This document shows, one piece after another, positions 6,361 through 26,470 of a stretch of 64,000 nt of DNA. The notes beneath the pieces are model-generated. The model was given only the letters and a program-made list of their open reading frames with translations, was not told where the DNA came from and did not search any database. Positions within the stretch are counted from its first letter, which is position 1. Each line of letters starts with the position of its first letter. Source of the DNA: Prolixibacteraceae bacterium (GTDB taxonomy: Bacteria; Bacteroidota; Bacteroidia; Bacteroidales; Prolixibacteraceae); the NCBI GenBank assembly GCA_037140615.1, contig JBAXED010000004.1, positions 8,485 through 72,484 on the forward strand, given 5' to 3'. The translations under genes and the position numbers were made by a program.

Positions 6361-9300
6361 ATGCGCTACTTGTCCCTTACAATAGTCGTCTTAATAATGG
6401 CTCTAATTGTTCATGGACAGACTTCCCCGCACGGGAAATCTTTCCAGATCGATTGTGCACAATGCCATACTTCCACCAACTGGAAGGTAAATCCCACAGC
6501 AATTCAGTTCAACCACGACATTACCAATTTTAAGCTGGTTGGTCAGCATTTGATTGTCAATTGCAAGGATTGTCATCTTGTGCTCACTTTCAAGGATGGG
6601 CGAAGCAATTGTCTTGATTGTCATGCAGATGCACACAACCAGTCGTTGGGTAAAGATTGCGGGAAATGTCATACGCCGAAATCCTGGATCATCAGTGATG
6701 TTACTGCCATGCATCAAAAAACAAGATTTCCGCTATTGGGTGCACATAGAACTGTCACTTGTAGTGAATGCCATAAGTCTGCTTCAAAATATCAATATGA
6801 GCCTCTTGGAATAGAATGTGTCAACTGTCATAACACAGATTTTCAGAAAACAACAACCCCAAATCACGTAACGAATAAATATTCAACATTTTGTCTGGAG
6901 TGCCACAACGAAAATTCAAATAGCTGGCGCACAACTCTAACAAGCCATGAATCGTTCCCTCTAACAGGTGGTCACAAGGTTGGATGCGGCTTATGCCATA
7001 CAACAGGTCATTACGCCAAAATTCCTACTGATTGTAATAATTGTCACAATAAACAGTATATAGCATCACAAATACCTAAGCATCAATCTGCAGGTATCCC
7101 GGTAAAATGCGAAACCTGCCATAATACCTCCACTTGGAAGCCTTCCAGCTTTAATCACCTTGCAACTGGTTTTGAATTAAAAGGATCACATAAAAATGTA
7201 GTACAATGTTCTGATTGCCATAAAGGAAATTTGACAAGTGCAAAACAAACTTGCATCAGTTGCCATCAGGTTCAATATGATAAAGCTCCCAACCATAAAA
7301 CTGTAAATTATCCACTAGATTGTACTCAATGCCATACACAAATTAATTGGGTAGATAATACCTTTAACCATTCTGCAACAAATTATCCACTTACAGGTGC
7401 TCATCAAAAAGTTAAATGCGGTGATTGCCATTTGACTACCTTGAAAGGAACACCTACTGTCTGTGGCAGTTGTCACCTTGCAACCTATAATAACTCCCAG
7501 GTACCCGCTCATGCGTCTGCAGGAATTCCAAAAGAATGCGCCACTTGCCACACAACAGCTGCATGGAAACCTTCCGGTTTTAACCATACAACAACAGGTT
7601 ATGAGTTGAAAGGTGCGCACAAATTACTGGTGCAGTGTTCATTGTGTCACAAGGGAAATGTTACTTCAGCACCACAAACCTGTGTCGGATGTCATCAGGC
7701 CAAATACGAAGTTGCTCCTAATCACAAAACTCTGGGCTATCCAACAGATTGTATTATGTGCCATACTCAGAACAATTGGTTGGAAAATAGCTTTAACCAT
7801 GCCACAACTGCCTTCCCATTAACAGGATCTCATGCATCAGTTCAATGTTCAAAATGTCATGTTGTAAGTTTTAAAGGAACATCTGCTATTTGTAGCAGTT
7901 GCCATTTGCCGGCGTATATCAGTTCAAAGTTACCTGACCATGTGGCAGCCGCTATACCAAAAGAATGTGCCACCTGCCATACTACAGTTTCCTGGAAACC
8001 TTCATCCTTCAATCATGCCACTACTGGCTATGAATTAAAAGGTGCACATACAAGCATTGTGCAGTGTTCACAGTGTCACAAAGGAATTGTCACTTCAGCA
8101 CCTCAGACTTGTTTAGCCTGCCACCAGACCAAGTATGATGCAGCTCCTAATCATAAAGTCAATGGTTTTCCAACTGATTGTGCCATGTGTCATACCCAGA
8201 ATAACTGGTTGGAAAATAGTTTTAACCATTCCACTACAGCCTTTCCACTGACCGGAGCACACACCAATGTTATCTGCTCAAAATGCCATACTGTTGGTTT
8301 TAAGGGGACATCCGCTGTTTGTAGTAATTGCCATATGCCAGTTTATACAAGTTCACAGATTCCTACCCATGTAGCTGCCGGTATTCCAAAGGAATGTGCA
8401 TCCTGCCATACGACAGCATCATGGAAGCCATCTGTTTTCAATCACACTACCACTGGTTATGAATTGAAAGGAGCTCATAAAAGCGTTGTTCAGTGTTCGC
8501 AATGTCACATAGGCAATGTCACTACTGCCCCTCAGGTATGTGTTGGATGCCATCAGGTTCAGTACAATGTGGCACCGGGTCATACGAAATATGGATTCTC
8601 AACTGATTGTGCCAAATGCCACACTCAAGACAACTGGTTATCAGCAATTTTTGATCATGCAGTAACTAATTTTCCGTTAACAGGTGCTCATTCAAAGGTC
8701 ATATGCGCTTCATGTCATGCCAATGGTTATACAGGAACTTCAACTGTTTGCAGCAGTTGCCATTTACCTGCTTTTAACAGTTCTCAAAATCCTGGTCACG
8801 TTGCCGCAGGCATTCCAAAGGAGTGTGCAACATGTCACACGATTGTATCCTGGAAACCATCCTCATTTAACCATACGACTACAGGATATGAACTTAAGGG
8901 GGCTCACAAGCTAATAGTTCAGTGTTCGCAATGTCACAAAGGCAATGTCACCAGCGCACCACAGGTTTGCATTGGATGCCACCAGGCGCAATACGATGTT
9001 GCACCCTCACATAAATCAAGTGGATTTTCAACAGATTGCGCCAAATGCCATTCTCAAGACAATTGGCTTTCTGCGAATTTTGACCATTCAACAACAAATT
9101 TCCCATTGACAGGAGCTCATACAAAGGTTCTTTGTGCTACCTGTCATGTAAAAGGCTATGCAGGCACTTCAACAGCTTGCAGCAGCTGTCACCTGCCGGT
9201 TTATACGAGCTCTCAACTGCCTGGTCACGTGGCTGCAGGTATACCAAAGGAGTGTGCGACCTGCCATACCACAGCAGTATGGAAACCTTCTACCTTCAAC

Positions 9301-10812
9301 CATACTACTACTGGTTATGAGCTAAAAGGCGCCCACAAACTGATTGTTCAGTGTTCAGACTGTCACAAAGGGAATGTTACAACTGCCGCCTTAACCTGCG
9401 TTGGATGCCATCAGGCCAAATATGATGCAGCATTGAATCACAAAGCACAGGGATACCCCACAGATTGCTCCATGTGCCACACCCAGAGCAACTGGTTGGA
9501 GAACAGTTTTAATCATGCCACAACGGCCTTCCCATTGACTGGGGCTCATACAACAGTTTTATGCTCAAAATGTCATATTGTTGGCTTCAAAGGGACGTCG
9601 ACAGTTTGTAGTAGCTGCCATTTGCCGGTATATACGAGCTCTCAATTGCCTGGTCACGTGGCTGCAGGTATACCAAAGGAGTGTGCGACCTGCCATACCA
9701 CAGCAGTATGGAAACCTTCTACCTTCAACCATACTACTACTGGTTATGAGCTAAAAGGCGCCCACAAACTGATTGTTCAGTGTTCAGACTGTCACAAAGG
9801 GAATGTTACAACTGCCGCCTTAACCTGCGTTGGATGCCATCAGGCCAAATATGATGCAGCATTGAATCACAAAGCACAGGGATACCCCACAGATTGCTCC
9901 ATGTGCCACACCCAGAGCAACTGGTTGGAGAACAGTTTTAATCATGCCACAACGGCCTTCCCATTGACTGGGGCTCATACAACAGTTTTATGCTCAAAAT
10001 GTCATATTGTTGGCTTCAAAGGGACGTCGACAGTTTGTAGTAGCTGCCATTTGCCGGTATATACGAGCTCTCAATTGCCTGGTCACGTGGCTGCAGGTAT
10101 ACCAAAGGAGTGTGCATCCTGCCATACCACAGCAGTATGGAAACCGTCTACATTCAATCATACAACCACAGGTTATGAACTGAAAGGTGCACATAAACTA
10201 ATAGTTCAGTGTTCACAATGCCACAAGGGAAATGTCACTTCTGCAGCTCTAACTTGCATTGGCTGTCATCAGACAAATTATGATACAGCTCTGAACCATA
10301 AAGCACAGGGATACCCCACAGATTGTGCCATGTGCCACACTCAGAACAACTGGTTGGAAAATAGTTTCAATCATGCCACAACAGCCTTCCCATTGACTGG
10401 AGCTCATACAACAGTTTTATGCTCAAAATGTCATACAACAAGTTTTAAGGGGACTTCTACGCTATGTTTCACATGTCATGCAGTGAAATACAATGCATCG
10501 ACAAATCCGAACCATCTTGGCGCTAAGTTTCCTACAAATTGCGAAATCTGTCATTCTACCAAGGCATGGACTCCTTCAACCTACAACCATGATGCTCAGT
10601 ATTTCCCAATAAACAGTGGGCGGCACAAGGGAGCATGGACGCTATGCACCGAATGTCATACGGTTCCTACTAATTATGCTACATTTAGTTGTATTGTTTG
10701 CCATACACATAGCAATAAGACAACAGTAGATGGAAATCATAAAGGCGTTAAAAATTATGCCTATACCGGTACATCCTGCTATACATGCCATCCCCGGGGA
10801 ACTACTAACTAA
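6361..10812 (+). CDS. giant multiheme c-type cytochrome, 61 CxxCH motifs, poly-c7-like modular architecture, Sec signal peptide
   Basis: I counted 61 CxxCH in 1483 aa (~24 aa per motif). Signal peptide MRYLSLTIVVLIMALIVHG. Repeated FNH / G(A/S)H / NHK histidines could serve as distal ligands. Confidence 0.9.
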   Translation: MRYLSLTIVVLIMALIVHGQTSPHGKSFQIDCAQCHTSTNWKVNPTAIQFNHDITNFKLVGQHLIVNCKDCHLVLTFKDGRSNCLDCHADAHNQSLGKDCGKCHTPKSWIISDVTAMHQKTRFPLLGAHRTVTCSECHKSASKYQYEPLGIECVNCHNTDFQKTTTPNHVTNKYSTFCLECHNENSNSWRTTLTSHESFPLTGGHKVGCGLCHTTGHYAKIPTDCNNCHNKQYIASQIPKHQSAGIPVKCETCHNTSTWKPSSFNHLATGFELKGSHKNVVQCSDCHKGNLTSAKQTCISCHQVQYDKAPNHKTVNYPLDCTQCHTQINWVDNTFNHSATNYPLTGAHQKVKCGDCHLTTLKGTPTVCGSCHLATYNNSQVPAHASAGIPKECATCHTTAAWKPSGFNHTTTGYELKGAHKLLVQCSLCHKGNVTSAPQTCVGCHQAKYEVAPNHKTLGYPTDCIMCHTQNNWLENSFNHATTAFPLTGSHASVQCSKCHVVSFKGTSAICSSCHLPAYISSKLPDHVAAAIPKECATCHTTVSWKPSSFNHATTGYELKGAHTSIVQCSQCHKGIVTSAPQTCLACHQTKYDAAPNHKVNGFPTDCAMCHTQNNWLENSFNHSTTAFPLTGAHTNVICSKCHTVGFKGTSAVCSNCHMPVYTSSQIPTHVAAGIPKECASCHTTASWKPSVFNHTTTGYELKGAHKSVVQCSQCHIGNVTTAPQVCVGCHQVQYNVAPGHTKYGFSTDCAKCHTQDNWLSAIFDHAVTNFPLTGAHSKVICASCHANGYTGTSTVCSSCHLPAFNSSQNPGHVAAGIPKECATCHTIVSWKPSSFNHTTTGYELKGAHKLIVQCSQCHKGNVTSAPQVCIGCHQAQYDVAPSHKSSGFSTDCAKCHSQDNWLSANFDHSTTNFPLTGAHTKVLCATCHVKGYAGTSTACSSCHLPVYTSSQLPGHVAAGIPKECATCHTTAVWKPSTFNHTTTGYELKGAHKLIVQCSDCHKGNVTTAALTCVGCHQAKYDAALNHKAQGYPTDCSMCHTQSNWLENSFNHATTAFPLTGAHTTVLCSKCHIVGFKGTSTVCSSCHLPVYTSSQLPGHVAAGIPKECATCHTTAVWKPSTFNHTTTGYELKGAHKLIVQCSDCHKGNVTTAALTCVGCHQAKYDAALNHKAQGYPTDCSMCHTQSNWLENSFNHATTAFPLTGAHTTVLCSKCHIVGFKGTSTVCSSCHLPVYTSSQLPGHVAAGIPKECASCHTTAVWKPSTFNHTTTGYELKGAHKLIVQCSQCHKGNVTSAALTCIGCHQTNYDTALNHKAQGYPTDCAMCHTQNNWLENSFNHATTAFPLTGAHTTVLCSKCHTTSFKGTSTLCFTCHAVKYNASTNPNHLGAKFPTNCEICHSTKAWTPSTYNHDAQYFPINSGRHKGAWTLCTECHTVPTNYATFSCIVCHTHSNKTTVDGNHKGVKNYAYTGTSCYTCHPRGTTN
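7537..10479 (+). repeat. in-frame tandem array of a 429-bp (143-aa, six-CxxCH) module, ~6.9 copies
   Basis: The periodic protein pattern CATCH..FNH..GAH..CSxCH..CxGCH..NHK..CxMCH..FNH..GAH..CSKCH..CSSCH recurs every 143 aa. Confidence 0.85.
9218..10115 (+). repeat. perfect 429-bp-period tandem duplication (2.09 copies) inside the cytochrome gene
   Basis: 9218-9686 is identical to 9647-10115 at lag 429 in line-by-line comparison. The flanking mismatches are at 9217/9646 and 9687/10116. Confidence 0.9.
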
Positions 10813-10870
10813 ATTAGAAAAGGGCAAATTTTCAATCTGAAATTTTCTAGTAAAAATTTGAGTTGCGTAG

Positions 10871-10888
10871 ATCAAAAAGCTTTTTGAT
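10871..10888. other. 18-nt perfect palindrome ATCAAAAAGCTTTTTGAT (weak terminator or binding site)
   Basis: Self-complementary sequence 59 nt downstream of the 61-heme gene stop. It is AT-rich, so its terminator strength is doubtful. Confidence 0.3.
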
Positions 10889-10907
10889 AGTCTGATTTCG
10901 TTGAAAA

Positions 10908-10990
10908 ATTAATTGGAATCATTACAAATATAAATAATGAGATAATTTATATTTAAAATAAATTGGTTAAAATGCATTTAATTATATCTA
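10908..10990 (+). promoter_or_regulatory. conserved AT-rich upstream element, copy B (core ATTAATTGGAATCATTACAAAT)
   Basis: Paralogous to 6080-6158. It lies ~296 nt upstream of the 11205 ORF start. Confidence 0.45.
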
Positions 10991-11204
10991 GATGGATAGT
11001 GATTATCTATAATAAAATCAGATACATAGCAATATTATTTATTTGACCGTATATAAAAAAGATTTTAAAAATTTAAAAATTTTGATTTTTCAAATTAAAT
11101 CAAAAAGTAACCCAGCAACCCGATTAGTTTAAAAAATTTCCTTCATGTGCTTCATAATGTTAGTTTTACACTTGATTCTTAACATGTGATTTGGAACATA
11201 AGAG

Positions 11205-12155
11205 TTGAACAAAAGTGTTGTGTTAAAAAAAAAGAATAACTTCACTTTACAAGTTACAGGTAGAAAGAATGTTAACAATCCCTTATTTGTTGCCATGAAA
11301 TTAAAAGATTCTACGATACATCAGATTGTCATTTCAGCATTAGTTGCCATAGTTGCCGGCATAGTTATAGTATTGTTATACATTGGCTATAGCTATTATT
11401 CAATTCCTATCGAAGAGAGACACTTTCATCCACTAAATCAATCATTTAAAGCTAGCGGTATTGTTGGACATGGCTTAGGCATTGTTGGTTCTGTCCTGAT
11501 CTTGGTCGGTGTATTCACCTATATTATCAGAAAGCGATTTCATCAATTTTCACGGATAGGCATTTTGAAGCATTGGCTGGAGTTCCATATATTCCTCTGC
11601 ACGCTAGGGCCATTCTTGATTCTATTTCATACCACTTTTAAATTTGGAGGAATTGTTGCAGTAAGTTTCTGGAGTATGGTGGTTGTTTTTCTTAGTGGAA
11701 TTATAGGAAGATATATTTATCTCCAAATTCCAAGATCAATTGAAGGGCAAGAACTCACACTTCTTGAACTTGAAGATCAGAAGATTGAAATGAACAAACA
11801 ATTAAGGCAGTCTGTTACATTGGACGAAAGTATTTATGAGCTTATAAATGTAACACCCAATAAATCAAAAGGCAATAGTAATTTTTTTGGAAGAAGTAAA
11901 GAGGAGCGAATGGCCTTTGGACAATTGAGAAGGGATTTGAAAATCCAAAAGCTTCCCACCAAAAAGGCAAGGGAAATAATTAGAATTTTTAAAAGTCAGT
12001 TGAGGCTTAAAAAGCGAATTGAGCGTTTGGTAACCATGCAAAAGCTTTTTTCCTACTGGCATGTGGCTCATTTACCATTTGCTTTAATCATGCTGGTGGT
12101 TATGATTATTCATGTTGTAGTCGCAGTTACTTTTGGTTATAAATGGATTTTTTAA
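11205..12155 (+). CDS. integral membrane protein, 5 predicted TM helices, two His-x13-His helices (candidate di-heme cytochrome b-like conduit)
   Basis: The ORF track start is TTG 11205; an alternative ATG is at 11295. H128/H142 lie in TM3 and H289/H303 in TM5. K/R-rich loops at 108-122 and 174-282 predict that both helices run cytoplasm to periplasm. Confidence 0.7.
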   Translation: MNKSVVLKKKNNFTLQVTGRKNVNNPLFVAMKLKDSTIHQIVISALVAIVAGIVIVLLYIGYSYYSIPIEERHFHPLNQSFKASGIVGHGLGIVGSVLILVGVFTYIIRKRFHQFSRIGILKHWLEFHIFLCTLGPFLILFHTTFKFGGIVAVSFWSMVVVFLSGIIGRYIYLQIPRSIEGQELTLLELEDQKIEMNKQLRQSVTLDESIYELINVTPNKSKGNSNFFGRSKEERMAFGQLRRDLKIQKLPTKKAREIIRIFKSQLRLKKRIERLVTMQKLFSYWHVAHLPFALIMLVVMIIHVVVAVTFGYKWIF

Positions 12156-13495
12156 TTATGGAAGTACTAATAGAAAATTTGGTCATTTATTCTCTGGTTG
12201 CAATATTTATTGTAGCTATTATTATGATTTATATTCTCAAGGGAAAGAGGGAATCACGCGTTGTGGAAGCCAAAATTGCCATTGCAATTGAGGAGGGAAT
12301 ACATGAACCGGTCACATTGCATCCTGTGATTGATGTAAACAGCTGCATCAAAAGTGGAGCCTGCATTACCGCATGTCACGAAAAGGATATAATTGGGATA
12401 AAAGATGGAAAGGCGACTATTATCAATGCTTCTCATTGCATTGGACATGGAGCTTGCTTTCATGCTTGTCCGGTTCAGGCTATCTCACTTTTTATTGGTA
12501 CTGAAAAGAGAGGCGTTGAATTGCCACACGTCGATCAAACATTTGAATCAAATGTTCCTGGAGTATATATTGCCGGGGAGATGGGAGGAATGGGTCTAAT
12601 AAGGAATTCAGTAGAACAGGGCAAGCAGGCAGTTGAGAACCTGATGAAAAAAATTGATAAAACAGTTGATGCTCAATATGATTTGCTAATTGTTGGTGGT
12701 GGGCCTGCCGGTGTATCTGCCTCCCTTGCGGCAAAGAAAAATAAGCTCAACGCATTGACTCTTGAGCAGAATAGCCTGGGTGGAACAGTCTTTACTTTTC
12801 CACGAGCGAAAATTGTCATGACATCAGCCATGGATTTACCCCTGCATGGTAAAGTTAAATTTAGTGAAACCAGTAAATCAGAGCTTCTGAATCTTTGGAC
12901 AACAGTGTTGACGAATAATGATATCGATCTTCGTGAGAACGCTAAAGTTGAGTCTATTACCCCAATTGATAATTATTTTTTGACAAAAACGCTGGATGGT
13001 CAGGAGTTTACCTCTCGCAAAATTTTGCTTGCCATTGGAAGAAGAGGTTCTCCCCGCAAGTTGAATGTTAAAGGAGAAGAGAGTATGAAAGTGGCTTATC
13101 GGCTGCTGGAACCGGAACTTATAATAGGGAAAAGAGTTTTGGTTGTTGGAGGAGGAGATTCAGCGATCGAATCTGCCTTGCTTCTAACTGACGAAAATGA
13201 AGTAACGCTTTCTTACAGAAGCGATGCATTTGGACGAATTAAGCCAAAAAACAATGAAAAGATCAGAGAAGCGATTGCAAATAAAACTGTAAATATGCTC
13301 TTTAATTCAAATGTGACATCCATTGAGGACCATCAGGTTAAATTATTTTTGTCGGATATTAAGGAAGAGGTTGTTCTCGAAAATGACCTTGTTTACATTT
13401 TTGCCGGAGGAGAACTGCCAACTCAGTTTCTAGAGAAAATAGGCATTAAAATCACCAAAAAATTTGGAGAAGCAATTCTTAAGCACGAAAAGTAG
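12143..13495 (+). CDS. membrane-anchored ferredoxin-like domain + FAD/NAD(P)-binding pyridine-nucleotide-disulfide-oxidoreductase-family protein
   Basis: N-terminal TM helix. Two Cys clusters CIKSGACITAC and CIGHGACFHACP. Dinucleotide motifs LLIVGGGPAGVSA and VLVVGGGDSAIE. The start overlaps the previous stop (or uses ATG 12158, 3 nt after it). Confidence 0.8.
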   Translation: MDFLIMEVLIENLVIYSLVAIFIVAIIMIYILKGKRESRVVEAKIAIAIEEGIHEPVTLHPVIDVNSCIKSGACITACHEKDIIGIKDGKATIINASHCIGHGACFHACPVQAISLFIGTEKRGVELPHVDQTFESNVPGVYIAGEMGGMGLIRNSVEQGKQAVENLMKKIDKTVDAQYDLLIVGGGPAGVSASLAAKKNKLNALTLEQNSLGGTVFTFPRAKIVMTSAMDLPLHGKVKFSETSKSELLNLWTTVLTNNDIDLRENAKVESITPIDNYFLTKTLDGQEFTSRKILLAIGRRGSPRKLNVKGEESMKVAYRLLEPELIIGKRVLVVGGGDSAIESALLLTDENEVTLSYRSDAFGRIKPKNNEKIREAIANKTVNMLFNSNVTSIEDHQVKLFLSDIKEEVVLENDLVYIFAGGELPTQFLEKIGIKITKKFGEAILKHEK

Positions 13496-13500
13496 TTTTA

Positions 13501-15123
13501 TTGGAAATTGATTTTAATAAAGCGGAAATGAGATTTGTATTTAGAATAGTATTTATTATTTGCATCCTGTCAATTTCTTTGCCTGGGAAATCTCAAATTT
13601 CGCCTGGAGAACTTTCAAAAGTTCACGCTCACCTGGAAGGAATGTCTAATTGCACCCAATGTCATACTTTGGGAGCGAAAGTATCAAACGAAAAATGTTT
13701 GGACTGCCACAAGGAGGTCAAGAAACGACTGAATGAAACCAGGGGTTATCATGCTTCATCAAAGGTCAAAAGCAAAGAATGTATTATTTGCCATAGTGAG
13801 CATTATGGTCGGAATTATGACATTGTCCACTTGATTAAGGATAAGTTTGACCATAATGAAACCGGGTATAAGCTGGAAGGAAAGCATGCAAAGAAAGAGT
13901 GCGCTGATTGTCACAAGATTGCAAATATCTCTGATCCTCAATTAAAGAACAAACATGAGACTTTTCTGGGATTGAGCGAGTCATGCCTTCCTTGTCATGA
14001 AGATTTTCACCAGAAGACCCTGCCAGTAAACTGCTTAAATTGTCACAATTACGATGCTTTTAAACCTGCCACTAAATTTGATCATGCTAAAACAAAATAT
14101 CAATTAAAAGGCAAGCATATTGATGTAGCTTGTGAAAAATGCCACCCGAAAAGTTCCCGGAATGGAAAAAATTTCCAGCAATTTTCAGGGTTGCAATTTC
14201 AAAATTGTGTAGCTTGTCATAAGGATCCCCACGAAAATAAATTTGGTCAGAATTGCATGCAATGTCATGTGGAGGAGTCGTTTAAGTCTGTAAAAAGCAT
14301 AGGGCAGTTTGATCATAGCAAGACTGGATTTGAATTGATTGGTAAGCACATTCAGGTGGCCTGTAAGACATGCCACAAAACCAATCTTACGGCTGCGATT
14401 AAACATGAGAAATGCACAGATTGCCACAAGGACTATCATAAGAATCAATTTAGCAAGGCCGGTAAATCGCCGGATTGTTCTGAATGTCATGATGTAACTG
14501 GGTTTGTTCAGTTTTCTTATTCGGTTGAGAAGCATAATCTTTCTAAATTTAAGCTCGAAGGAGCACACCTTGCTATTCCTTGCCTCGACTGCCATAAGAA
14601 AGAGAAAGAGTGGAATTTCAAAAATATTGGAGAAAGATGCGTGGATTGTCACAAGGACATTCACAAAGACCTGATTGATACAAAATATTATCCAGTTCAA
14701 AAATGTGAAAATTGCCATCAAGTGTTGGCTTGGAATGAAATTAAGTTTGACCACAAACTAACATCTTTTGACCTTCAAGGTAAACATGCGGCCACTTCTT
14801 GCAGGAAATGCCATTTTGATGAAAAAATCAACAAGGGAATGAGTCAAAAATTTAAAGGCTTTGATGGGAATTGCGAAAGTTGTCATACGGATGTGCATCG
14901 CGCTCAATTTAGCAAGAACAACGAGATTGTTTGTTTGAAGTGTCATGGTTTTAACAACTGGAAGCCAGAAAAATTCAACCACAATACAACCAGGTTTAAA
15001 TTGGATGGAGGTCATAAAGATGTAGCTTGTGCCAAATGCCACAAACTGCTGACAGAAGGGAATAATACGTACATTAATTACAAATTTAAAGACATATTAT
15101 GCGCTACTTGTCACTTACAATAG
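13501..15123 (+). CDS. multiheme c-type cytochrome, 20 CxxCH motifs; likely start ATG 13528
   Basis: I counted 20 CxxCH. The signal peptide MRFVFRIVFIICILSISLPGKSQ begins at 13528. Repeated FDH..T..L.GKH....CxxCH....CxxCH.D.H modules. Confidence 0.9.
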   Translation: MEIDFNKAEMRFVFRIVFIICILSISLPGKSQISPGELSKVHAHLEGMSNCTQCHTLGAKVSNEKCLDCHKEVKKRLNETRGYHASSKVKSKECIICHSEHYGRNYDIVHLIKDKFDHNETGYKLEGKHAKKECADCHKIANISDPQLKNKHETFLGLSESCLPCHEDFHQKTLPVNCLNCHNYDAFKPATKFDHAKTKYQLKGKHIDVACEKCHPKSSRNGKNFQQFSGLQFQNCVACHKDPHENKFGQNCMQCHVEESFKSVKSIGQFDHSKTGFELIGKHIQVACKTCHKTNLTAAIKHEKCTDCHKDYHKNQFSKAGKSPDCSECHDVTGFVQFSYSVEKHNLSKFKLEGAHLAIPCLDCHKKEKEWNFKNIGERCVDCHKDIHKDLIDTKYYPVQKCENCHQVLAWNEIKFDHKLTSFDLQGKHAATSCRKCHFDEKINKGMSQKFKGFDGNCESCHTDVHRAQFSKNNEIVCLKCHGFNNWKPEKFNHNTTRFKLDGGHKDVACAKCHKLLTEGNNTYINYKFKDILCATCHLQ

Positions 15124-18100
15124 TCGTCGTGTTGATGGCTTTAAATGTTTTGGGACAGACTTCCCCGCATGGGAAGGCATTCCAGATCGATTGTGCACAA
15201 TGCCATACTTCCACCAACTGGAAGGTAAATCCTACGGCAATTCAGTTCAACCATGACAATACCAATTTCAAGTTGGTTGGTCAGCATTTGGTTGTCAATT
15301 GCAAGGATTGTCACTTGTCCCTTACCTTCAAGGATGGGAGAAGAAACTGTATTGATTGTCATACAGATGCCCACAACCAGTCATTGGGTAAAGATTGCGA
15401 AAAGTGTCATATGCCGAAATCCTGGATCATCAGTGATGTAACAGCCATGCATCAAAAAAACAGATTTCCACTTTTAGGTGCACATAGGACAGTAAATTGC
15501 AGTTCATGCCATAAGTCGGCGTCACAATTTCTATTTGAGCCTCTTGGAATAGAATGTGTCAACTGTCATAACACAGATTTTCTGAAAACAACAACCCCAA
15601 ATCACGTAACGAATAAATATTCAACATTTTGTCTGGAGTGCCACAACGAAAATTCAAATAGCTGGCGCACAACTCTAACAAGCCATGAATCGTTCCCTCT
15701 AACAGGTGGTCACAACGTTGGATGCGGCTTATGCCATACGACAGGTCACTACACCAAAATCCCTACTGATTGTAATAATTGTCACAATAAGCAATATATA
15801 GCATCACAAATACCCAAGCATCAGGCTGCGGGTATACCTGTTAAATGTGAAACCTGCCATAATACTTCTAGCTGGAAACCATCCAGTTTCAACCATCTTT
15901 CGACTGGTTTCGAATTAAAAGGATCACATAAAAATGTTGTACAGTGTTCTGACTGCCACAAGGGTAATTTGACAAGTGCAAAGCAAACCTGCCTAAGCTG
16001 TCATCAGGTTCAATATGACAAAGCTCCCAACCACAAAGCAGTAAACTATCCGGTTGACTGTACTCAATGTCATTCCCAAATTAATTGGATAGATAATACT
16101 TTTAACCATTCTGCTACAAGCTATCCACTAACAGGAGCTCATAAAGTAGTGAAATGCGGTGATTGCCATTTGACCGCATTGAAAGGAACGCCTACAGTTT
16201 GTAGTGGCTGCCACCTTTCCACTTATACCAACTCACAGGTGCCAGCTCATGCTTCTGCAGGAATTTCCAAGGATTGTGCAACCTGTCACACCACAGTAGC
16301 ATGGAAACCTTCCGGTTTTAACCATACAACCACAGGTTATGAATTGAAAGGTGCGCACAAATTACTGGTGCAGTGTTCATTGTGTCACAAGGGAAATGTT
16401 ACTTCAGCACCACAAACCTGTGTCGGATGTCATCAGGCTAAATATGATGTAGCCCCTAACCACAAAGCTCAGGGCTATCCAACAGATTGTATCATGTGTC
16501 ATACACAGAACAATTGGCTGGAAAATAGCTTTAACCATGCCACAACAGCCTTTCCCTTAACCGGATCTCATATTTCAGTTGATTGTTCGAAATGTCATAC
16601 TGTTGGTTTTAAAGGAACACCAGTGGTTTGCAGCAGCTGCCATTTGCCGGCATATACCAGTTCCATGTTACCTGACCACGTGGCGGCCGGAATACCCAAA
16701 GAGTGTGCAACTTGTCATACAACGGTTTCCTGGAAACCTGCATCTTTTAATCATACCACAACAGGCTATGAGCTGAAAGGGGCGCATAAAAGCGTCGTTC
16801 AGTGTTCAGTGTGCCACAAAGGAAACCTGACTTCAACACCTCAGACTTGTATATCATGTCATCAGGCACAGTACGATGTTGCGCCTGCGCATAAGAAAAG
16901 CGGATTTTCAACTGATTGTGCCACATGCCATACACAAGACAACTGGTTATCCACTACTTTTGATCACTCAACTACAACTTTTCCTTTGACTGGAGCTCAT
17001 ACCAAGGTTGTTTGTTCTTTATGCCATGCCAATGGATATGCAGGAACTTCAACAGTATGCAGTAGCTGCCATTTACCTGTATATACCAGTTCTCAAACGC
17101 CTGGTCACGTTGCAGCAGGTGTCCCAAAAGAGTGTGCTACCTGCCATACCACAATTTCCTGGAAACCATCTTCGTTTAACCACTCAACCACCGGTTATGA
17201 GTTAAAAGGGGCTCATAAACTAATTATTCAGTGTTCACTTTGTCATTTAGGAAATGTAACATCCGCTCCACAGGTATGTATTGGATGCCATCAGGCACAA
17301 TACGATGTTGCACCATCACACAAAGCAAGCGGATTTTCAACAGATTGCACCAAATGCCATTCACAGGACAATTGGCTTTCCGCCAATTTTGACCATTCAA
17401 CAACTACATTTCCTCTTACCGGAGCTCATGCCAAGGTTCTCTGTACTACTTGCCATATCAATGGTTATGCCGGTACTTCAACCGCATGCAGTAGTTGCCA
17501 TTTGCCGGTTTATACGAGTTCTCAATTGCCAGGTCACGTTGCTGCGGGGATACCAAAGGAGTGCGCAACCTGCCACACCACCGTCGTATGGAAACCTTCT
17601 ACTTTCAACCATACCGCCACAGGATTTGAACTCAAAGGAGCGCATAAGCTTATAGTTCAATGTTCAGATTGTCATAAAGGAAATCTCACCTCCGCATCTT
17701 TGAGCTGTATTGGATGCCATCAGGCTAAATATGATGCAGCACCAAATCATAAAGCACAGGGATATCCAACAGACTGTACAATCTGCCACACCATGAACAA
17801 CTGGCTGGAGAACAGCTTCAATCATGCAACAACAGCCTTCCCATTGACTGGAGCTCATACCACTGTTTTATGTTCCAAATGTCATACCGTTGGTTTCAAA
17901 GGCACTCCGACAGCATGCAATAGTTGCCATTTACCGGTTTATACGAGTTCGCAATTACCTGGCCACGCTGCCGCTGGAATACCTACTGATTGTGCAACCT
18001 GTCATACAACAGCTGTATGGAAACCATCTACATTCAACCATACTACCACCGGATACCAACTACTAGGTGCGCATAAGCTTTTAGTCCAATGTTCAGATTG

Positions 18101-18689
18101 CCACAAAGGAAATGTCAAAACTGCGGCCTTAACATGTGTAGGTTGCCACCAGGCTAAATATGATGCAGCCCTTAACCATAAGGCACAGGGATATCCTACA
18201 GATTGTGCAATGTGCCACACTCAGAACAACTGGTTAGAGAATAGCTTCAATCATGCCACAACTGCCTTCCCATTGACTGGAGCTCATACTACTGTTTTAT
18301 GCTCTAAATGTCATGCCACAACTTTTAAGGGTACTTCGACATTGTGTTTCACTTGTCATGCAACCAAATACAATGCATCCACAAATCCGAACCATCTAGC
18401 CGCTAAATTCCCTACTAATTGCGAAATTTGTCATACTACCAAGGCATGGACTCCTTCAACATACAACCATGATGCTCAGTATTTCCCAATTAGTAGTGGA
18501 CGGCACAAAGGGGTATGGACGCTTTGTACCGAATGTCATACAGTTGCTACTAATTATGCCACTTTTAGTTGTATCGTTTGTCATACGCATAGCAATAAGG
18601 CTAGCATAGACAGCAGTCACAAAGGCATAAAAAATTATACATATACCGGTACATCTTGTTACACATGCCATCCCCGGGGAAATACTTAA
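15099..18689 (+). CDS. giant multiheme c-type cytochrome, 49 CxxCH motifs, paralog of 6361-10812
   Basis: I counted 49 CxxCH in 1196 aa. The signal peptide and N- and C-terminal caps match the 61-heme paralog. Its start overlaps the upstream gene by 25 nt. Confidence 0.9.
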   Translation: MRYLSLTIVVVLMALNVLGQTSPHGKAFQIDCAQCHTSTNWKVNPTAIQFNHDNTNFKLVGQHLVVNCKDCHLSLTFKDGRRNCIDCHTDAHNQSLGKDCEKCHMPKSWIISDVTAMHQKNRFPLLGAHRTVNCSSCHKSASQFLFEPLGIECVNCHNTDFLKTTTPNHVTNKYSTFCLECHNENSNSWRTTLTSHESFPLTGGHNVGCGLCHTTGHYTKIPTDCNNCHNKQYIASQIPKHQAAGIPVKCETCHNTSSWKPSSFNHLSTGFELKGSHKNVVQCSDCHKGNLTSAKQTCLSCHQVQYDKAPNHKAVNYPVDCTQCHSQINWIDNTFNHSATSYPLTGAHKVVKCGDCHLTALKGTPTVCSGCHLSTYTNSQVPAHASAGISKDCATCHTTVAWKPSGFNHTTTGYELKGAHKLLVQCSLCHKGNVTSAPQTCVGCHQAKYDVAPNHKAQGYPTDCIMCHTQNNWLENSFNHATTAFPLTGSHISVDCSKCHTVGFKGTPVVCSSCHLPAYTSSMLPDHVAAGIPKECATCHTTVSWKPASFNHTTTGYELKGAHKSVVQCSVCHKGNLTSTPQTCISCHQAQYDVAPAHKKSGFSTDCATCHTQDNWLSTTFDHSTTTFPLTGAHTKVVCSLCHANGYAGTSTVCSSCHLPVYTSSQTPGHVAAGVPKECATCHTTISWKPSSFNHSTTGYELKGAHKLIIQCSLCHLGNVTSAPQVCIGCHQAQYDVAPSHKASGFSTDCTKCHSQDNWLSANFDHSTTTFPLTGAHAKVLCTTCHINGYAGTSTACSSCHLPVYTSSQLPGHVAAGIPKECATCHTTVVWKPSTFNHTATGFELKGAHKLIVQCSDCHKGNLTSASLSCIGCHQAKYDAAPNHKAQGYPTDCTICHTMNNWLENSFNHATTAFPLTGAHTTVLCSKCHTVGFKGTPTACNSCHLPVYTSSQLPGHAAAGIPTDCATCHTTAVWKPSTFNHTTTGYQLLGAHKLLVQCSDCHKGNVKTAALTCVGCHQAKYDAALNHKAQGYPTDCAMCHTQNNWLENSFNHATTAFPLTGAHTTVLCSKCHATTFKGTSTLCFTCHATKYNASTNPNHLAAKFPTNCEICHTTKAWTPSTYNHDAQYFPISSGRHKGVWTLCTECHTVATNYATFSCIVCHTHSNKASIDSSHKGIKNYTYTGTSCYTCHPRGNT
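16275..18359 (+). repeat. in-frame tandem array of the 429-bp six-CxxCH module, ~4.9 copies
   Basis: Same 143-aa periodicity as in 7537-10479, with exactly two fewer modules. Confidence 0.85.
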
Positions 18690-18789
18690 TCTTATAATTT
18701 TGAAATGGTTGATTTAGAATGATTTTTGTTTTATTGAGACAAGAAAAAGATGGCAGATTCTGAATTAATGGTATCTGGAATGTTAAAAA

Positions 18790-18797
18790 TAATTTTG
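18790..18797 (+). promoter_or_regulatory. candidate Bacteroidota -7 box TAATTTTG
   Basis: Perfect TAnnTTTG 21 nt upstream of ATG 18818. No clear -33 TTTG was seen. Confidence 0.35.
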
Positions 18798-18817
18798 TAA
18801 ACGTATTAATTTGATTG

Positions 18818-20425
18818 ATGAGAATTATAATAATCATATTTGGAATGTTTTTGCTCTTACCAGCTGTTTCCGCCCAAAATGGGAAAACAGAAATTGAAGG
18901 AGCAGTAACTTACCAAACCACTCAAAATGTTTATGTCAAATTTTTATCGGCAAGAGGTATTAAAATCGGAGATAAAATTTTTCTCCGGAAGGATCAACTT
19001 CTCGTACCCGTTTTGAATGTGGAGAATGTTTCTTCTGTTTCTTGTGTTGGAAAACCAATTGGAAATGAAAAATTCAAGGTCGGTGACAAACTAATTGCCT
19101 TGGTTTCAAAAGAAGAAGCAGCAGTTGAAAAGGAATTACAAAAGGAACAGGCTGTTGCATTGGTGCCAGATAGCTCGAAATCAGGAATTAGTAAAACCCC
19201 CATTGCCACATCAAGTAGGAAACAACGCATCGATGGGCGAATTCAAATATCCTCTTATTCAAATCTTTCAAGTTTACCTTCCGGCAATAACAATCGGTTG
19301 AGGTACATCTGGTCTATGAATGCCACCAATATTTCAGATTCACGAATTTCATTGGATGCTTACATATCATTTTCCCATAAGTTGAACGATTGGGCACCAA
19401 TCAAGGAGAATATTTTTAACGGACTAAAAATTTACGACCTCAATCTGCAATATGAAGTCGGTGATAACACTACTATCTGGTTGGGAAGGAAAATCAATCC
19501 TAATATTGCCAGTCTAGGTGCGCTTGATGGTTTACAATTTGAAATGAAGTTCAAACATTTTTTCTGGGGAGCTGTAGGAGGCTTCAGACCTGATTATGTC
19601 GACTATAGTTTTAATAAGAATTTGTTGGAATATGGTGCATTTATTGGCCATATGGCAAAAAATATGAATGGAGTCATGCAGACTTCATTGGCTGGATTCA
19701 ACCAAACCAATTCCGGTCATACTGACCGACGTTTTGTTTATTTTCAACATGATAACTCATTGTTGAAAAATGTCAACCTTTTTCTGTCTTCAGAGGTAGA
19801 TCTGTATAAAATAATCAACGGACTTCCTGTCAATGAATATACCTTGACGAGTTTATACTTAATGCTGAACTATAGGATATCCAGAAAGCTTTCGGTTTCA
19901 ACTTCCTATGATAATCGTAAGAATATTATTTATTACGAGACCTATAAAAATTACGTCGATGCAATGCTGGCAGATGCAACAAGGCAAGGTGTACAATTTA
20001 GGATCAATTATCGACCAATTAATTACATGAGCATTGGTTTCTCATCTAGTTACTGGGATCGGGCAGGGGATAGCAGACCAACTAAAAACTTCAATGGAAT
20101 ATTTACCTATTCACAACTTCCGCTATTGAAAGTTTCATCTACTTTAACTGCTAATATACTGCAAACTAGTTATGTAGATGGGGCGATTTATGGGATTAGA
20201 TTTGATAAGGATTTTTTCAATGGCAAGATGAACTGGGGATTAAACTACAGATATGTTGATTATACCTACCTGGCCTCTTCAGGAAAACTCATCGAACACA
20301 TTGGCGCCGCTGACTTATCCATTCAATTTACCCGTAAATTTTCCATGTCAGTTAGCTATGAAGGAACCTTTGAACAACAGAATGTTTACCACCAGATCTA
20401 TGGTAGTCTGATTAAGCGTTTTTAA
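18818..20425 (+). CDS. predicted outer-membrane beta-barrel protein with ~140-aa N-terminal soluble domain
   Basis: Signal peptide MRIIIIIFGMFLLLPAVSAQ. Many amphipathic alternating stretches rich in Y/N/S/G (for example GVQFRINYRPINYMSIGFSSSYWD). C-terminal Phe (SLIKRF). Confidence 0.7.
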   Translation: MRIIIIIFGMFLLLPAVSAQNGKTEIEGAVTYQTTQNVYVKFLSARGIKIGDKIFLRKDQLLVPVLNVENVSSVSCVGKPIGNEKFKVGDKLIALVSKEEAAVEKELQKEQAVALVPDSSKSGISKTPIATSSRKQRIDGRIQISSYSNLSSLPSGNNNRLRYIWSMNATNISDSRISLDAYISFSHKLNDWAPIKENIFNGLKIYDLNLQYEVGDNTTIWLGRKINPNIASLGALDGLQFEMKFKHFFWGAVGGFRPDYVDYSFNKNLLEYGAFIGHMAKNMNGVMQTSLAGFNQTNSGHTDRRFVYFQHDNSLLKNVNLFLSSEVDLYKIINGLPVNEYTLTSLYLMLNYRISRKLSVSTSYDNRKNIIYYETYKNYVDAMLADATRQGVQFRINYRPINYMSIGFSSSYWDRAGDSRPTKNFNGIFTYSQLPLLKVSSTLTANILQTSYVDGAIYGIRFDKDFFNGKMNWGLNYRYVDYTYLASSGKLIEHIGAADLSIQFTRKFSMSVSYEGTFEQQNVYHQIYGSLIKRF

Positions 20426-20452
20426 TTTTTTCATCTCAATTTATATTCTACA

Positions 20453-20505
20453 GGTAAACAAAACAAAAGGGTTTTCATTCCGAAAACCCTTTTGTTTTGT
20501 TTACC
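20453..20505. terminator. bidirectional intrinsic terminator, 24-bp perfect stem with 5-nt loop
   Basis: 20453-20476 pairs perfectly with 20482-20505. It lies between convergent stops at 20425 and 20519. Confidence 0.8.
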
Positions 20506-20518
20506 TTAAAAAAACTTC

Positions 20519-23500
20519 TCAGCTCATTAGGGCTTTTATCTTCTTTAGATTTTTCCTTCTGCGGTTTTTAATACGTATGATGTAATCCATATAATAGAGC
20601 GCTGGAACGAACAATAGGGTAAGAAACGTTGCAAAGCTCAATCCGAAGATAATTGTCCATGAGAGAGGTCCCCAGAAGGCAACATTATCGCCTCCAAAAT
20701 AAATCTGTGGATTGAAAGAGGTGAACAAGGTTTCAAAGTTAATGTTCATTCCAACTGCCAAAGGAACCAAGCCTAGTATTGTCGCTGATGCGGTAAGAAC
20801 AACAGGGGTAATTCTGGTCTTTCCTGCCTGGATGATAGCATCTCTTGTTTTCATTCCCCGTTTTTTCATTTCGTCGCAGAATTCCACAATCAATATTCCG
20901 TTTCGGACAACAATTCCACCAAGTGCTACCACGCCTAAGCCAGTCATCATAATGACCAGATCCATGCGGAATACAATCACACCCAATAAAACTCCAACAA
21001 TACTAAATATCACCTCACTTAGGATAATGATAGATTTACTGATTGAGCCAAATTGTGATATCAGAATAAAGAATATCATGCCGAGTGCTATAATCATTGC
21101 CTTCAGCAGAAATGAAGAGGTTTCGGCCTGGTTTTCCTGCTCTCCTGTGAGCTTGATAGAGGTTCCCGAATGCATCGGATAATCTTTGGCCAATGCTTTG
21201 ATCTTAGGGACTATATCATTTGGAGAATAGCCGGATATAACATTTGAATAAACAGTAATGATACGTTTTTGATCCAAACGTTTTATTCCGGCATAGGAAC
21301 TTGAATATTGAATTTTCGCCACTGTGGAAAGTGGTATCGTCCTGATCTGTCCAGAGTTCATATCACGGTAGGTTATCACCAGATTGATCAACGAATTGAT
21401 ATTTTCGCGTGTCAGCTTTGAATAGCGCAGCGTAATTGGAAATTCGTCTTCATCTTTCTTAAATTTTGAAATCTCTTTTCCAAACAGGGCTGTTCTTAGC
21501 TCCAGTCCAATCTGACCCGTCGACAATCCAGCTCTTTGAGCACGGTCACGGTCGATGTTAATCATGATTTCCGGAGAGTTTATTTCAAAGTCAGTCTTCA
21601 GTTCTTCAACACCGGGAATATTTAATGAATCGAGGTAATTGCGAAATCCGAAAGCATCTGACACCAATTCATCCATATTTTCACTGGTAACCTCAATATT
21701 GATTGGTTGTCCGGTTGGAGGTCCCATTTTGCTTTTACCAACAGTTATCTCAGCTCCGGCAATATCAGCAATTGATTCTCGAATTTTTGCCATATATTTT
21801 GTTGTGGAGATGCCGGTTGTCCTGAATTTGCTTTCAACAAAATTAATAGAGATCTTTCCTTTGTTAAAAGGCTTACCTGCACTTGAAAAACCTTCCTCCT
21901 CGGCACCAATTGTAATATTGGAAATCACCGATTCAACGTCAGGATTATGATCTCCTATGGCTTGATAAACACGTTTTTCCGCAATTCTGGTAACGCTGTC
22001 CGTTACATTTTGATCAGTACCTCCAGGCATTTTTACATATACCATGATGCTGTTTGGATCACTATCAGGAAAAAAAAGTACTTTAGGTTTTACGATACCG
22101 GTAAGCACCATGGTAAATATGAAAAGCACTACCATTGCTCCAAGCATCCAAAGAGGACGGAAACCATACAGCACCCAACGCAACTGTTTCTCGTATGCAG
22201 CCATGATCTTTGGCCAAAAATTTTCCTGAAATGATTTGATCCAAAATTGGATGGCGTAATGGTATAGGAAGACCATCAATATGGCAAATACAATGAAATT
22301 GGCAATTCCAAAAGATTTGAACAGATAGAATACTACTGCCAAACCAAACATCCCAAGCATGATTTTCTTTGTTTGCTTCCATTCCGCTTTTGTGTCAGAA
22401 TCAAATTCATGTGCCATGAAAGAGACTGCAAATACCGGGTTGAAGATGTAGGCTACAAAGAGTGATGCAAACAAGGTGATAATTAATGTTACCGGTAAGT
22501 AATGCATGAATTGCCCAACAATACCTGGCCAGAATGCCAATGGGAAAAAGGGTGCAAGTGTCGTTAGCGTACCGGACAGAATGGGCAAAAATACTTCGCC
22601 TGCAGCCAGCTTAGCCGCGACCCGGATGTCTGGATGACTTTTGTGCATTCGGTGGGTATTTTCAATGACCACAATGGCATCATCAACCACAATTCCCAAA
22701 GCAAAAATGAAAGCGAACATGACAATCATGTTCATCGTAAATCCTATGTTTGGAATGATCAGATAAGCAATGGCCATAGAAAGCGGAACTGAGAGTCCGA
22801 CAAAGAACGCATTTGTAAAGCCCATGAAGAACATCAGAACGATAGTGACAAGAATGAAACCAATAATAATCGTATTGTTTAGTTCTTCAAGCGTGTTGCG
22901 CGTCATGCGGCTCTGATCGCCGGAGATAGTCATAGTAAGATCACCCGGAAGTTCTTTACCCTTAACTGAAGAAACAATTTCTTTGATCTGATCTGACGCA
23001 TCCAGAAGGTTTGTTCCGCTCTTTTTAATCACATTAAGCGTAATAACGTTTTTGCCATCCAGACGGGAGAAACTTTCCTGCTCTTTAAAGTTATCGCTGA
23101 CCTCAGCAAGGTCACTTAACTTGATGTATGCTCCACCAGAACCATGCACAACAATGTCTCGAACTTCCTGAACAGTTTCAAATTGACCCTTTAACCGAAC
23201 AGTATTTTTTGTTCCGTTCATCGTAATTGTACCACCAGAAATGGTTAAGTTCTCGCGGGCAACAGCTCCTTCGATGTCGGCAAAAGTGACTCTGGCAGCC
23301 TGCATTTTAAAAATATCGGCATTGATCTGAATTTCACGTTCGAGGGCACCTACAATATCGACTCTTGTAATTTCTTTGACACCTTCTATCTTATCCTGAA
23401 CGATTTCAGCATATTTCTTCAGTTTATCCAGCTCGTAATTTCCGGAGATATTGATATACATCACTGGAAATTCTGCTAAATTGACATCCATAATTTGAGG

Positions 23501-23908: not shown

Positions 23909-23926
23909 AATTACTTTATTTGTCGA

Positions 23927-25042: not shown

Positions 25043-25130
25043 CTTTTTATTATTTGTTTTTATAATATCTTTTTATTTTTCGGGAGACATATTCCTGATA
25101 AGGGAGCCTCCTATTTTATTTTTTGAGTTT

Positions 25131-26465: not shown

Positions 26466-26470
26466 AATTA

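Follow-up and report, generated by a model that had tools for sequence, protein, structure and literature searches.

How a small membrane protein with no recognised family might serve a cluster of giant cytochromes is the question raised by a locus in a window of 64,000 nucleotides (the whole stretch of DNA analysed; contig JBAXED010000004.1 of assembly GCA_037140615.1, positions 8,485 to 72,484, forward strand) from a Prolixibacteraceae bacterium of the Bacteroidota. The open reading frame listing of the window contains a frame at 11205..12155 on the forward strand. It encodes an inner-membrane protein, termed IMP below, and lies next to genes for an iron-sulphur (FeS) flavoprotein and for multiheme cytochromes (MHCs). 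An earlier interpretation made from the letters alone, the sequence-only reading, saw in IMP a candidate di-heme b wire coupled to the flavoprotein. We consider it probable that IMP is the inner-membrane subunit of an envelope conduit of the porin-cytochrome cluster type PCC3, in which electrons would pass from NAD(P)H through FAD, FeS clusters and two b hemes to the multihemes. The conserved pairing of IMP with the flavoprotein points to a path by which electrons of cytoplasmic NAD(P)H would leave the cell without passing through quinones. The gene and its main elements, including its transmembrane (TM) helices, are listed here with residues numbered from the start codon at 11295.

11295..12155, forward strand: IMP, predicted di-heme b transmembrane electron carrier of 286 amino acids (aa), five TM helices, inner membrane (open reading frame and homolog alignment).
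11574..11630, forward strand: TM3, W94-x3-H98-x13-H112, His codons at 11586-11588 and 11628-11630 (hydropathy, motif, conservation).
11694..11708, forward strand: SGxxG motif of TM4, S134-G-I-I-G138, followed by R139-x2-Y142-x2-I145-P146 at the cytoplasmic end (near-invariant columns).
11724..12050, forward strand: predicted cytoplasmic helical insert between TM4 and TM5, ~109 residues, K/R-rich, variable in sequence in the alignments (model helices of moderate confidence).
12051..12137, forward strand: TM5, W255-H256-x2-H259-x13-H273, His codons at 12069-12071 and 12111-12113 (hydropathy, motif, conservation).

The sequence-only reading had started the protein at TTG 11205, a choice that homolog lengths and alignment do not favour. 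Since the homologs are mostly 284-289 aa long and their alignment begins at M31 of the TTG numbering, the true start is probably ATG 11295, which is backed by ~90% of them, and TTG 11205 and GTG 11220 are less likely. Annotation of this start is inconsistent, the 311-aa protein of the NCBI metagenome-assembled genome (MAG) implying GTG 11220. The best protein match of IMP names a Prolixibacteraceae MAG. The AT-rich gap of 482 nt upstream (10813-11294) probably holds the operon promoter; a sigma-70 promoter scan of it was uninformative, as such scans are for Bacteroidota. In the TTG numbering His residues are found at 39, 73, 75, 89, 113, 123, 128, 142, 286, 289 and 303, and exactly 13 residues separate H128 from H142 and H289 from H303. 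These four are H98, H112, H259 and H273 in the numbering from ATG 11295.

Five TM segments were obtained both from Kyte-Doolittle windows and from AlphaFold2 helices, with the His pairs on TM3 and TM5, so the architecture first described for this frame holds. The parallel course of these two helices had been argued from K/R-rich loops, and the charge counts bear this out. The loop after TM2 (IRKRFHQFSRIGILKH) contains 5 K/R and no D/E, and the insert between TM4 and TM5 contains 24 K/R versus 14 D/E. Given this K/R excess, the N-terminus, the loop after TM2 and the insert are cytoplasmic by the positive-inside rule, and TM3 and TM5 would both run from inside to outside. The AlphaFold2 model made with distant homologs has a pLDDT of 79.9 and a pTM of 0.70, with the TM helices at 85-95; the model from close homologs only was poor (pLDDT 68.7).

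The conservation of the four His was examined in 105 full-length representatives of clusters at no more than 50% identity. H98 is conserved in 99%, H112 in 100%, H259 in 93% and H273 in 95%, the exceptions being mostly gaps. The same residues are invariant or nearly so across three curated alignments, in two of which (A1 and A6) H259 and H273 are invariant. At least two Hx13H motifs are present in 253 of the 258 family proteins of at least 260 aa, and at least two Wx3Hx13H motifs in 240 of them. Judged by the conservation of the His in these diverse representatives and by the number of proteins with paired Hx13H motifs, the four-His pattern is more than chance. The Trp four residues ahead of the first His of each pair is also conserved, and S134, G135 and G138 are conserved at 99-100%. 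Further conserved motifs are S134-G-x2-G138-R139-x2-Y142-x2-I145-P146, Y76-x2-R-K-R after TM2 and F-K-x-G-G after TM3. Conserved motifs thus lie at both membrane faces, which would fit the docking of partners on both sides. The family is very large: the scored candidates include more than 7,000 proteins when clustered at 90%, and clustering at 50% identity gives 2,805 representatives at E<=1e-3, of which 1,570 reach E<=1e-10. Its members are found in Bacteroidota, Gemmatimonadota, Acidobacteriota and Schekmanbacteria, are annotated "hypothetical" and have no Pfam model.

The proposed partner is encoded immediately downstream and has the following parts.

12143..13495, forward strand: membrane-anchored FeS flavoprotein, 450 aa (Pfam Pyr_redox_3, 2e-40, and Fer4 families).
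~12158-12238, forward strand: N-terminal TM helix of the 12143..13495 product.
12320-12487, forward strand: ferredoxin-like domain of the flavoprotein with two 3-Cys motifs (Cys pattern).
12677-13474, forward strand: YpdA/TrxR-type FAD and NAD(P) domain of the flavoprotein (Pfam, PDB relatives).

Translational coupling of IMP to a membrane-anchored FeS/FAD/NAD(P) protein, claimed in the sequence-only reading, was confirmed in that the flavoprotein frame opens within the end of the IMP gene, the two sharing 13 nt (an alternative start lies 3 nt past the stop), and the product carries a TM helix, a ferredoxin-like domain and a Pyr_redox_3 domain. The NCBIfam YpdA model matches it well under cut-off, and its nearest PDB entries are 7a76 and 7a7b (YpdA/Bdr; NADPH-dependent) and 3ab1 (a TrxR-type ferredoxin-NADP+ reductase). 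A CxxC disulfide centre was looked for in the flavoprotein and none is present. The FeS domain is not a canonical 2x[4Fe-4S] one because it contains six Cys only, C68-x2-S-x2-C74-x3-C78-H and C99-x2-H-x2-C105-x3-C109-P (residues 68-110, window 12344-12472), in place of the two CxxCxxCxxxCP motifs (8 Cys) of a 2x[4Fe-4S] ferredoxin. In motif 2 a His stands where the second Cys would be, and it is invariant among 84 homologs from different phyla; the corresponding position of motif 1 is S/T in Bacteroidota and Cys in more distant (Gemmatimonadota-like) lineages. This suggests that the clusters may be [3Fe-4S], or [4Fe-4S] with a non-Cys (His/Ser) ligand, at the membrane interface.

Multihemes had been said to follow, and 20-heme and 49-heme cytochromes c do so, with a 61-heme paralog upstream. 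The cluster is completed by these genes.

6361..10812, forward strand: 61-heme cytochrome c, 1483 aa, signal peptide, matching the PCC3 'extracellular MHC' type (61 CxxCH, 24 aa per heme).
13501..15123, forward strand: 20-heme cytochrome c, 540 aa, signal peptide, matching the PCC3 'periplasmic MHC' type (20 CxxCH; Pfam Cytochrome_C7 and c3).
15099..18689, forward strand: 49-heme cytochrome c, 1196 aa, repeat-built 'extracellular MHC' type (49 CxxCH; syntenic in related loci).
18815..20425, forward strand: putative outer-membrane beta-barrel (porin), 536 aa (signal peptide, C-terminal Phe).

Pfam scans of the operon products found no NapC/NirT, NrfD or classical cytochrome b gene, in agreement with the earlier statement that the module has no quinol dehydrogenase.

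The linkage of IMP to the flavoprotein was followed in 80 loci from GTDB species genomes, found with a 10-sequence IMP alignment. Apart from one MAG labelled Syntrophothermus and two entries labelled 'uncultured bacterium' these are Bacteroidota, including Prolixibacteraceae, Saprospiraceae, Lentimicrobiaceae, Flavobacteriales and MAGs labelled Rikenellaceae. The flavoprotein gene stands directly after IMP in ~79 of the 80, the lone exception ending ~100 bp past IMP. The 20-heme cytochrome follows the flavoprotein in the great majority, and a homolog of the 536-aa putative porin closes the operon in ~50. The conserved Bacteroidota order, as far as the contigs run, is IMP, FeS flavoprotein, 20-heme MHC, giant MHC and 536-aa outer-membrane protein. 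The whole cluster is present in a cultured member of the Cytophagales, Emticicia oligotrophica DSM 17448, on the 100-kb plasmid pEMTOL02 (locus 8818-20616), where the order is ccsA, IMP, NAD(P)-binding flavoprotein, two cytochrome c3-family MHCs and a 538-aa hypothetical protein. RefSeq lists this IMP, WP_015031196.1, as 'hypothetical protein' and the flavoprotein, WP_015031197.1, as 'NAD(P)-binding domain-containing protein'. Because the whole cluster sits on this plasmid, its occurrence in Emticicia points to horizontal mobility.

The same gene order was seen in a Gemmatimonadaceae contig, and one further non-Bacteroidota lineage has the IMP-flavoprotein pair adjoining an MHC. Genes of 538-567 aa with no Pfam match occupy the position of the putative porin in other phyla. 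An Acidobacteriota-type cluster reads MHC, MHC, barrel, 260-aa protein, IMP and TPR protein, with the flavoprotein gene convergent just downstream in one contig (P0276). Of 38 distant metagenomic IMP loci, 16 have the FeS flavoprotein and 2 have an FNR-like reductase, the remainder being mostly contigs too short to judge; among the 14 with at least 1.3 kb downstream of IMP the flavoprotein was found in 12. The Acidobacteriota-type clusters (L083, 7218-8000, and the P0276 contig) have a feature of their own, a conserved no-Pfam protein of 255-260 aa that is encoded directly upstream of IMP and overlaps it, the small TPR protein following; a second 260-aa no-Pfam gene lies beside the convergent flavoprotein gene in the P0276 contig.

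Fusions and changes of reductase were also encountered. A natural fusion of 732 aa (P0301, two records) has the flavoprotein at its N-terminus and IMP at its C-terminus and is followed by two MHCs and a 562-aa gene. In a protein of 855 aa (P0305; L089, 7001-9568) one or more cNMP-binding domains and a multi-cluster Fer4 region are fused to a remote IMP, and the neighbours are an FNR-like FAD/NAD/2Fe-2S protein, a cytochrome c554-like protein and an 809-aa MHC. This fusion hints at control of transmembrane electron flow by cyclic nucleotides. Plasmids of Legionella sp. MW5194 (L091, 5944-9406) and Methylophaga pinxianii (L092, 6992-10346) carry a three-gene module of FNR-like reductase, IMP and small MHC. 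The reductase (~620 aa, FAD/NAD/2Fe-2S) is encoded upstream of IMP and translationally coupled to it. The remote IMP, of 253 aa, keeps Hx13H twice and SGxxG and is also coupled to the small multiheme cytochrome downstream; these gammaproteobacterial plasmid homologs are 26% identical to the window IMP. Both modules lie within copper/heavy-metal-resistance islands (multicopper oxidase, P-type ATPase, DUF2933, ICMT), where they may serve metal detoxification by supplying the periplasm with electrons from NAD(P)H. FNR-like partners, which are non-homologous to the window flavoprotein, are confined to remote IMP homologs. Three unrelated NAD(P)H-type reductase solutions thus adjoin the same TM module, and this is the strongest argument that its cytoplasmic partner would be a dehydrogenase using a soluble cofactor, in place of the quinone pool or in addition to it.

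The proposed mechanism places two b hemes between TM3 and TM5. H98 and H259 would ligate one on the cytoplasmic side and H112 and H273 the other on the periplasmic side, ~21 Å (14 residues) farther along the helices. The co-translated, membrane-anchored flavoprotein would dock on the cytoplasmic side of IMP, oxidise NAD(P)H at its FAD and send single electrons onward via two FeS clusters, one of them His-ligated. The electrons would cross the membrane from heme to heme and reach the 20-heme periplasmic cytochrome. The outer-membrane barrel and the 49/61-heme extracellular cytochromes would then carry them to an acceptor outside the cell, for instance a partner cell, humics or Fe(III)/Mn(IV) minerals. 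Such a chain would resemble NOX/ferric reductase or type-B fumarate reductase, with a multiheme wire at the outlet, not O2 or quinone. Outward flow of electrons is redox-downhill and assisted by the membrane potential, and inward flow to NAD(P)+ is strongly uphill. Given that outward flow is favoured in both respects, the module would act as a sink that conserves no energy and regenerates NAD(P)+ in fermentative or facultative Bacteroidota. What the sequences show directly is their features, the conservation of these, the synteny and the fusions; that heme b is bound, that FeS and heme make contact, that electrons flow outward and that quinones are not needed is inferred.

A wider proposal can be made, more tentatively and with a real chance of proving wrong: the IMP-flavoprotein pair may be a self-contained, quinone-independent transmembrane NAD(P)H dehydrogenase, a 'NOX for minerals', that is widespread, modular by reductase and a third way of feeding extracellular electron transfer (EET). 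The same di-heme IMP would accept TrxR-like FeS flavoproteins, FNR-like 2Fe-2S reductases or fused FeS domains, and the distribution of this modular IMP would extend over Bacteroidota, Gemmatimonadota, Acidobacteriota and gammaproteobacterial plasmids.

The class of protein has been met before. Two new porin-cytochrome cluster types, PCC3 and PCC4, were described by He, Barco, Emerson & Roden 2017 (Front Microbiol 8:1584, PMC5566968). In PCC3 a porin is encoded with a conserved hypothetical IMP of ~300 aa and two MHCs: the extracellular MHC is built of repeats and has a median of 34 hemes at 22-39 aa per heme, and the periplasmic one has a median of 21 hemes. Every PCC3 and PCC4 IMP was reported to have five TM helices, with SGxxG in TM4 and Wx3Hx13H in both TM3 and TM5; a parallel with ferric reductase domains (FRD) and cytochrome b was drawn, and two b hemes and possibly a quinone-active role were proposed (PMC5566968). 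Later papers still give PCC3 as four genes of unverified function, and the heme counts of 61 and 20 in later PCC3 literature are the same as those in the window. By its sequence features the window cluster fits PCC3 on every described criterion, the match of IMP to the proteobacterial IMPs being one of described features. The window IMP has 286 aa, five TM, W94LEFH98...H112, W255HVAH259...H273 and S134GIIG138. It is accompanied by MHCs of 20, 49 and 61 hemes with 429-bp repeats and by a secreted putative porin of 536 aa ending in Phe. The P0305 fusion locus resembles PCC4 subgroup II of the same study. The published PCC3 hosts are Proteobacteria, mostly Fe(II)-oxidisers, whereas the hosts here are Bacteroidota together with Gemmatimonadota, Acidobacteriota and Schekmanbacteria. 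The published cluster has four genes and a quinone-pool model, whereas here the FeS/FAD/NAD(P) flavoprotein is an integral, conserved fifth gene. No mention of such a partner of the PCC3 IMP was found in the PCC3 papers or the supplements of He et al. 2017, and no description of a flavoprotein-IMP link in the literature on Bacteroidota EET, DUF4405 with multihemes, quinone-independent EET and PCC3. Thus the IMP class and its di-heme reading were already published in 2017 and the window IMP is a Bacteroidota member. The apparent novelty lies in the NAD(P)-flavoprotein partner, which is conserved and in places fused to IMP, and in the interchangeability of reductase types.

Among better known systems, the ferric-reductase superfamily (NOX, FRE, STEAP, MsrQ; PF01794) shares with IMP the bis-His pairs on TM3 and TM5, both running from inside to outside, and an NAD(P)H/FAD dehydrogenase on the cytoplasmic side. 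IMP differs in having five TM helices in place of six, the flavoprotein adding one TM helix, and in its 109-residue cytoplasmic insert ahead of TM5. That the flavoprotein anchor stands in for the 'missing' sixth FRD helix remains speculation, the natural fusion P0301 having the opposite order, flavoprotein then IMP. In MsrQ 12 residues lie between the two His of the second pair (H151 and H164, from the translated E. coli sequence), whereas both pairs of IMP have 13. Where NOX has a fused C-terminal FNR-type FAD/NADPH domain, the dehydrogenase here has its own gene, is of the Pyr_redox_3/YpdA type and includes a ferredoxin-like domain, and the predicted acceptor is a multiheme cytochrome, not O2 or an Fe(III) chelate. 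The logic proposed here, of cytoplasmic flavoprotein, FeS relay and five-TM di-heme b subunit, is also that of type-B SQR/QFR (Wolinella FrdC) and of HdrE/DsrM-type anchors. These anchors have no detectable sequence similarity to IMP and differ from it in His spacing and helix assignment; the distal partner in those enzymes is a quinone, in contrast to the periplasmic multiheme cytochrome proposed for IMP. DUF4405, PepSY_TM (FoxB), FezC and MsrQ are reported to be structurally related four-His cytochromes, with heme b shown for DUF4405 and FezC (PMC11334425). As is proposed for IMP, four central His of DUF4405, FoxB and FezC provide two bis-His sites for heme b within a small bundle of TM helices (PMC11334425). 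These three partner extracytosolic flavinylated proteins or reside in ferrosomes, whereas the proposed partners of IMP are a cytoplasmic FeS flavoprotein and c-type multihemes.

Profile searches with 40 diverse IMP family members scanned individually against Pfam gave matches to DUF4405 in 26, Ferric_reduct in 17, Ni_hydr_CYTB in 11 and PepSY_TM in one. All are below threshold, and di-heme b families are the only recurrent signals. The best DUF4405 match has an E-value of 2.3e-5, with P0255 reaching 26.2 bits against a gathering threshold of 26.7, and the best Ferric_reduct match, also sub-threshold, is 5.5e-4. Positions 1-63 of the Ferric_reduct profile fall on TM2-TM3, and DUF4405 and Ni_hydr_CYTB fall on the last helix, so a DUF4405 match in a relative spans one His-x13-His helix only; the window IMP itself is below detection and stays under the gathering thresholds of both Ferric_reduct (PF01794) and DUF4405 (PF14358; 26.7 bits). 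On these matches IMP probably represents a branch, very remote from the others, of the transmembrane cytochromes with two b hemes and works like an FRD, membership of the FRD or DUF4405 families being undemonstrated. The likeness to a split NOX/ferric reductase seen in the sequence-only reading therefore stands for the layout of the His pairs and for the pairing with a cytoplasmic dehydrogenase and is not established for homology, where the support comes from sub-threshold matches in relatives. Its interpretation as a whole was supported, being favoured or left undecided by the in-silico checks run and opposed by none.

Several results weigh against a di-heme IMP fed by the flavoprotein. The window IMP gave no match to Pfam or NCBIfam even at E<=1, and its search against PDB sequences, as a single sequence and as a 40-sequence profile, returned noise in the cytoplasmic insert only. 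Alignment by hhalign with E. coli MsrQ, alone or as a 15-sequence alignment, covered the last helix only at less than 1% probability, the MsrQ profile being weak as it was made from near-identical enterobacterial sequences. Foldseek against the PDB found no match below E=0.9 with the pLDDT-79.9 model and BAR-domain and long-helix noise with the pLDDT-68.7 model; an all-helical TM bundle with a long insert seems to defeat this search. At one locus the IMP and flavoprotein genes are paired but no multiheme gene is close by, and a Bryobacteraceae locus with the Acidobacteriota-type cluster has IMP with MHCs and a barrel-sized gene and no flavoprotein within 8 kb. Finally, proteobacterial PCC3 was described as four genes without a flavoprotein, and a quinone-active cytochrome b was proposed (PMC5566968).

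The last two points bear on the published model, in which IMP is a quinone-active di-heme cytochrome b connecting the menaquinone pool, in either direction, with the periplasmic MHC; the flavoprotein would then be an accessory, feeding for example the same hemes or the quinone site as in succinate:quinone oxidoreductases. This model has the authority of He et al. 2017 and would account for clusters with IMP and MHCs but no adjacent flavoprotein, and the weak matches of relatives to Ni_hydr_CYTB are to a family of quinone-reactive cytochromes b. Set against the tight linkage of the flavoprotein or another NAD(P)H-type reductase to IMP across phyla, and the existence of fusions, it is unlikely to describe the clusters considered here. 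The absence of significant structural or profile matches to a solved heme protein would also be expected if the conserved His were not heme ligands at all but held a transported or catalytic metal or lined a proton path. That is highly improbable: parallel helices with His 14 residues apart on each, and a Trp four residues before the first, make up a di-heme geometry, the remote similarities that recur all point to heme b families and the gene neighbours are entirely redox proteins.

The same components could run in reverse, electrons from Fe(II), a cathode or a partner cell entering via the multihemes and IMP and the flavoprotein reducing NAD(P)+ or another acceptor. Electron wires are reversible in principle, PCC3 was first found in Fe(II)-oxidisers and a PCC3 IMP gene is upregulated in iron-oxidising cells of Sideroxydans CL21. 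However, the step from Fe(II) to NAD(P)+ is uphill by several hundred mV, as established bioenergetics has it, and would work against the inside-negative membrane potential. The operon encodes no coupling device, and many hosts belong to Bacteroidota families known as organotrophs (Prolixibacteraceae, Lentimicrobiaceae, Saprospiraceae), so that inward flow seems quite improbable. A role of the IMP-flavoprotein pair in the making or upkeep of cytochromes, keeping apocytochrome CxxCH thiols or periplasmic heme/iron reduced, is brought to mind by the thioredoxin-reductase-like flavoprotein and by ccsA, a cytochrome c biogenesis gene, at the head of the Emticicia operon. The Legionella and Methylophaga plasmid modules among metal-resistance genes, with ccm genes following in Methylophaga, would also suit it. 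Yet a redox-active CxxC is missing from the flavoprotein, IMP lacks the sort of conserved Cys pair that thiol-relay proteins use, and a stoichiometric operon that includes a putative porin argues for a structural conduit, leaving this role very doubtful indeed. Outward flow from NAD(P)H through the flavoprotein and a di-heme IMP is the explanation preferred here.

The remaining features of the window concern the cytochromes and their surroundings. The start of the 20-heme cytochrome is probably the ATG at 13528. The window MHCs of 20, 49 and 61 hemes have 24-27 aa per heme. The 61-heme and 49-heme proteins are 79% identical paralogs flanking the operon and contain tandem units of 429 bp (143 aa), 6.8 copies in the 61-heme gene (7517-10435) and ~3.5 in the 49-heme gene (16629-18436). 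This identity, their flanking positions and the differing repeat numbers suggest recent duplication of the giant cytochromes and a change in repeat number. A Pfam scan of the 536-aa putative porin gave no match. Directly beyond the cytochromes, on the reverse strand at 20519-27124, lies an RND efflux operon unrelated to the IMP cluster (OEP, HlyD-type adaptor, AcrB-type pump and TetR regulator).

PCC3-type clusters contain some of the largest multiheme cytochromes known and are widespread in bacteria of sediment, sludge and groundwater. If the flavoprotein is a real partner of IMP, then the hosts could dump electrons from NAD(P)H on minerals, humics, electrodes or partner cells without the quinone pool. 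This would give EET a third feed besides the quinol dehydrogenases (CymA/ImcH/CbcL) and flavin-based EET, fill the inner-membrane step of PCC3 and put a NOX-like, quinone-independent model in place of the published quinone-pool model. The pair would also offer a compact two-gene inlet module for the engineering of electroactive cells. Emticicia oligotrophica DSM 17448, a cultured carrier by virtue of pEMTOL02, makes the idea directly testable. If true, the place of fermentative Bacteroidota in iron cycling and in interspecies electron transfer would be changed.

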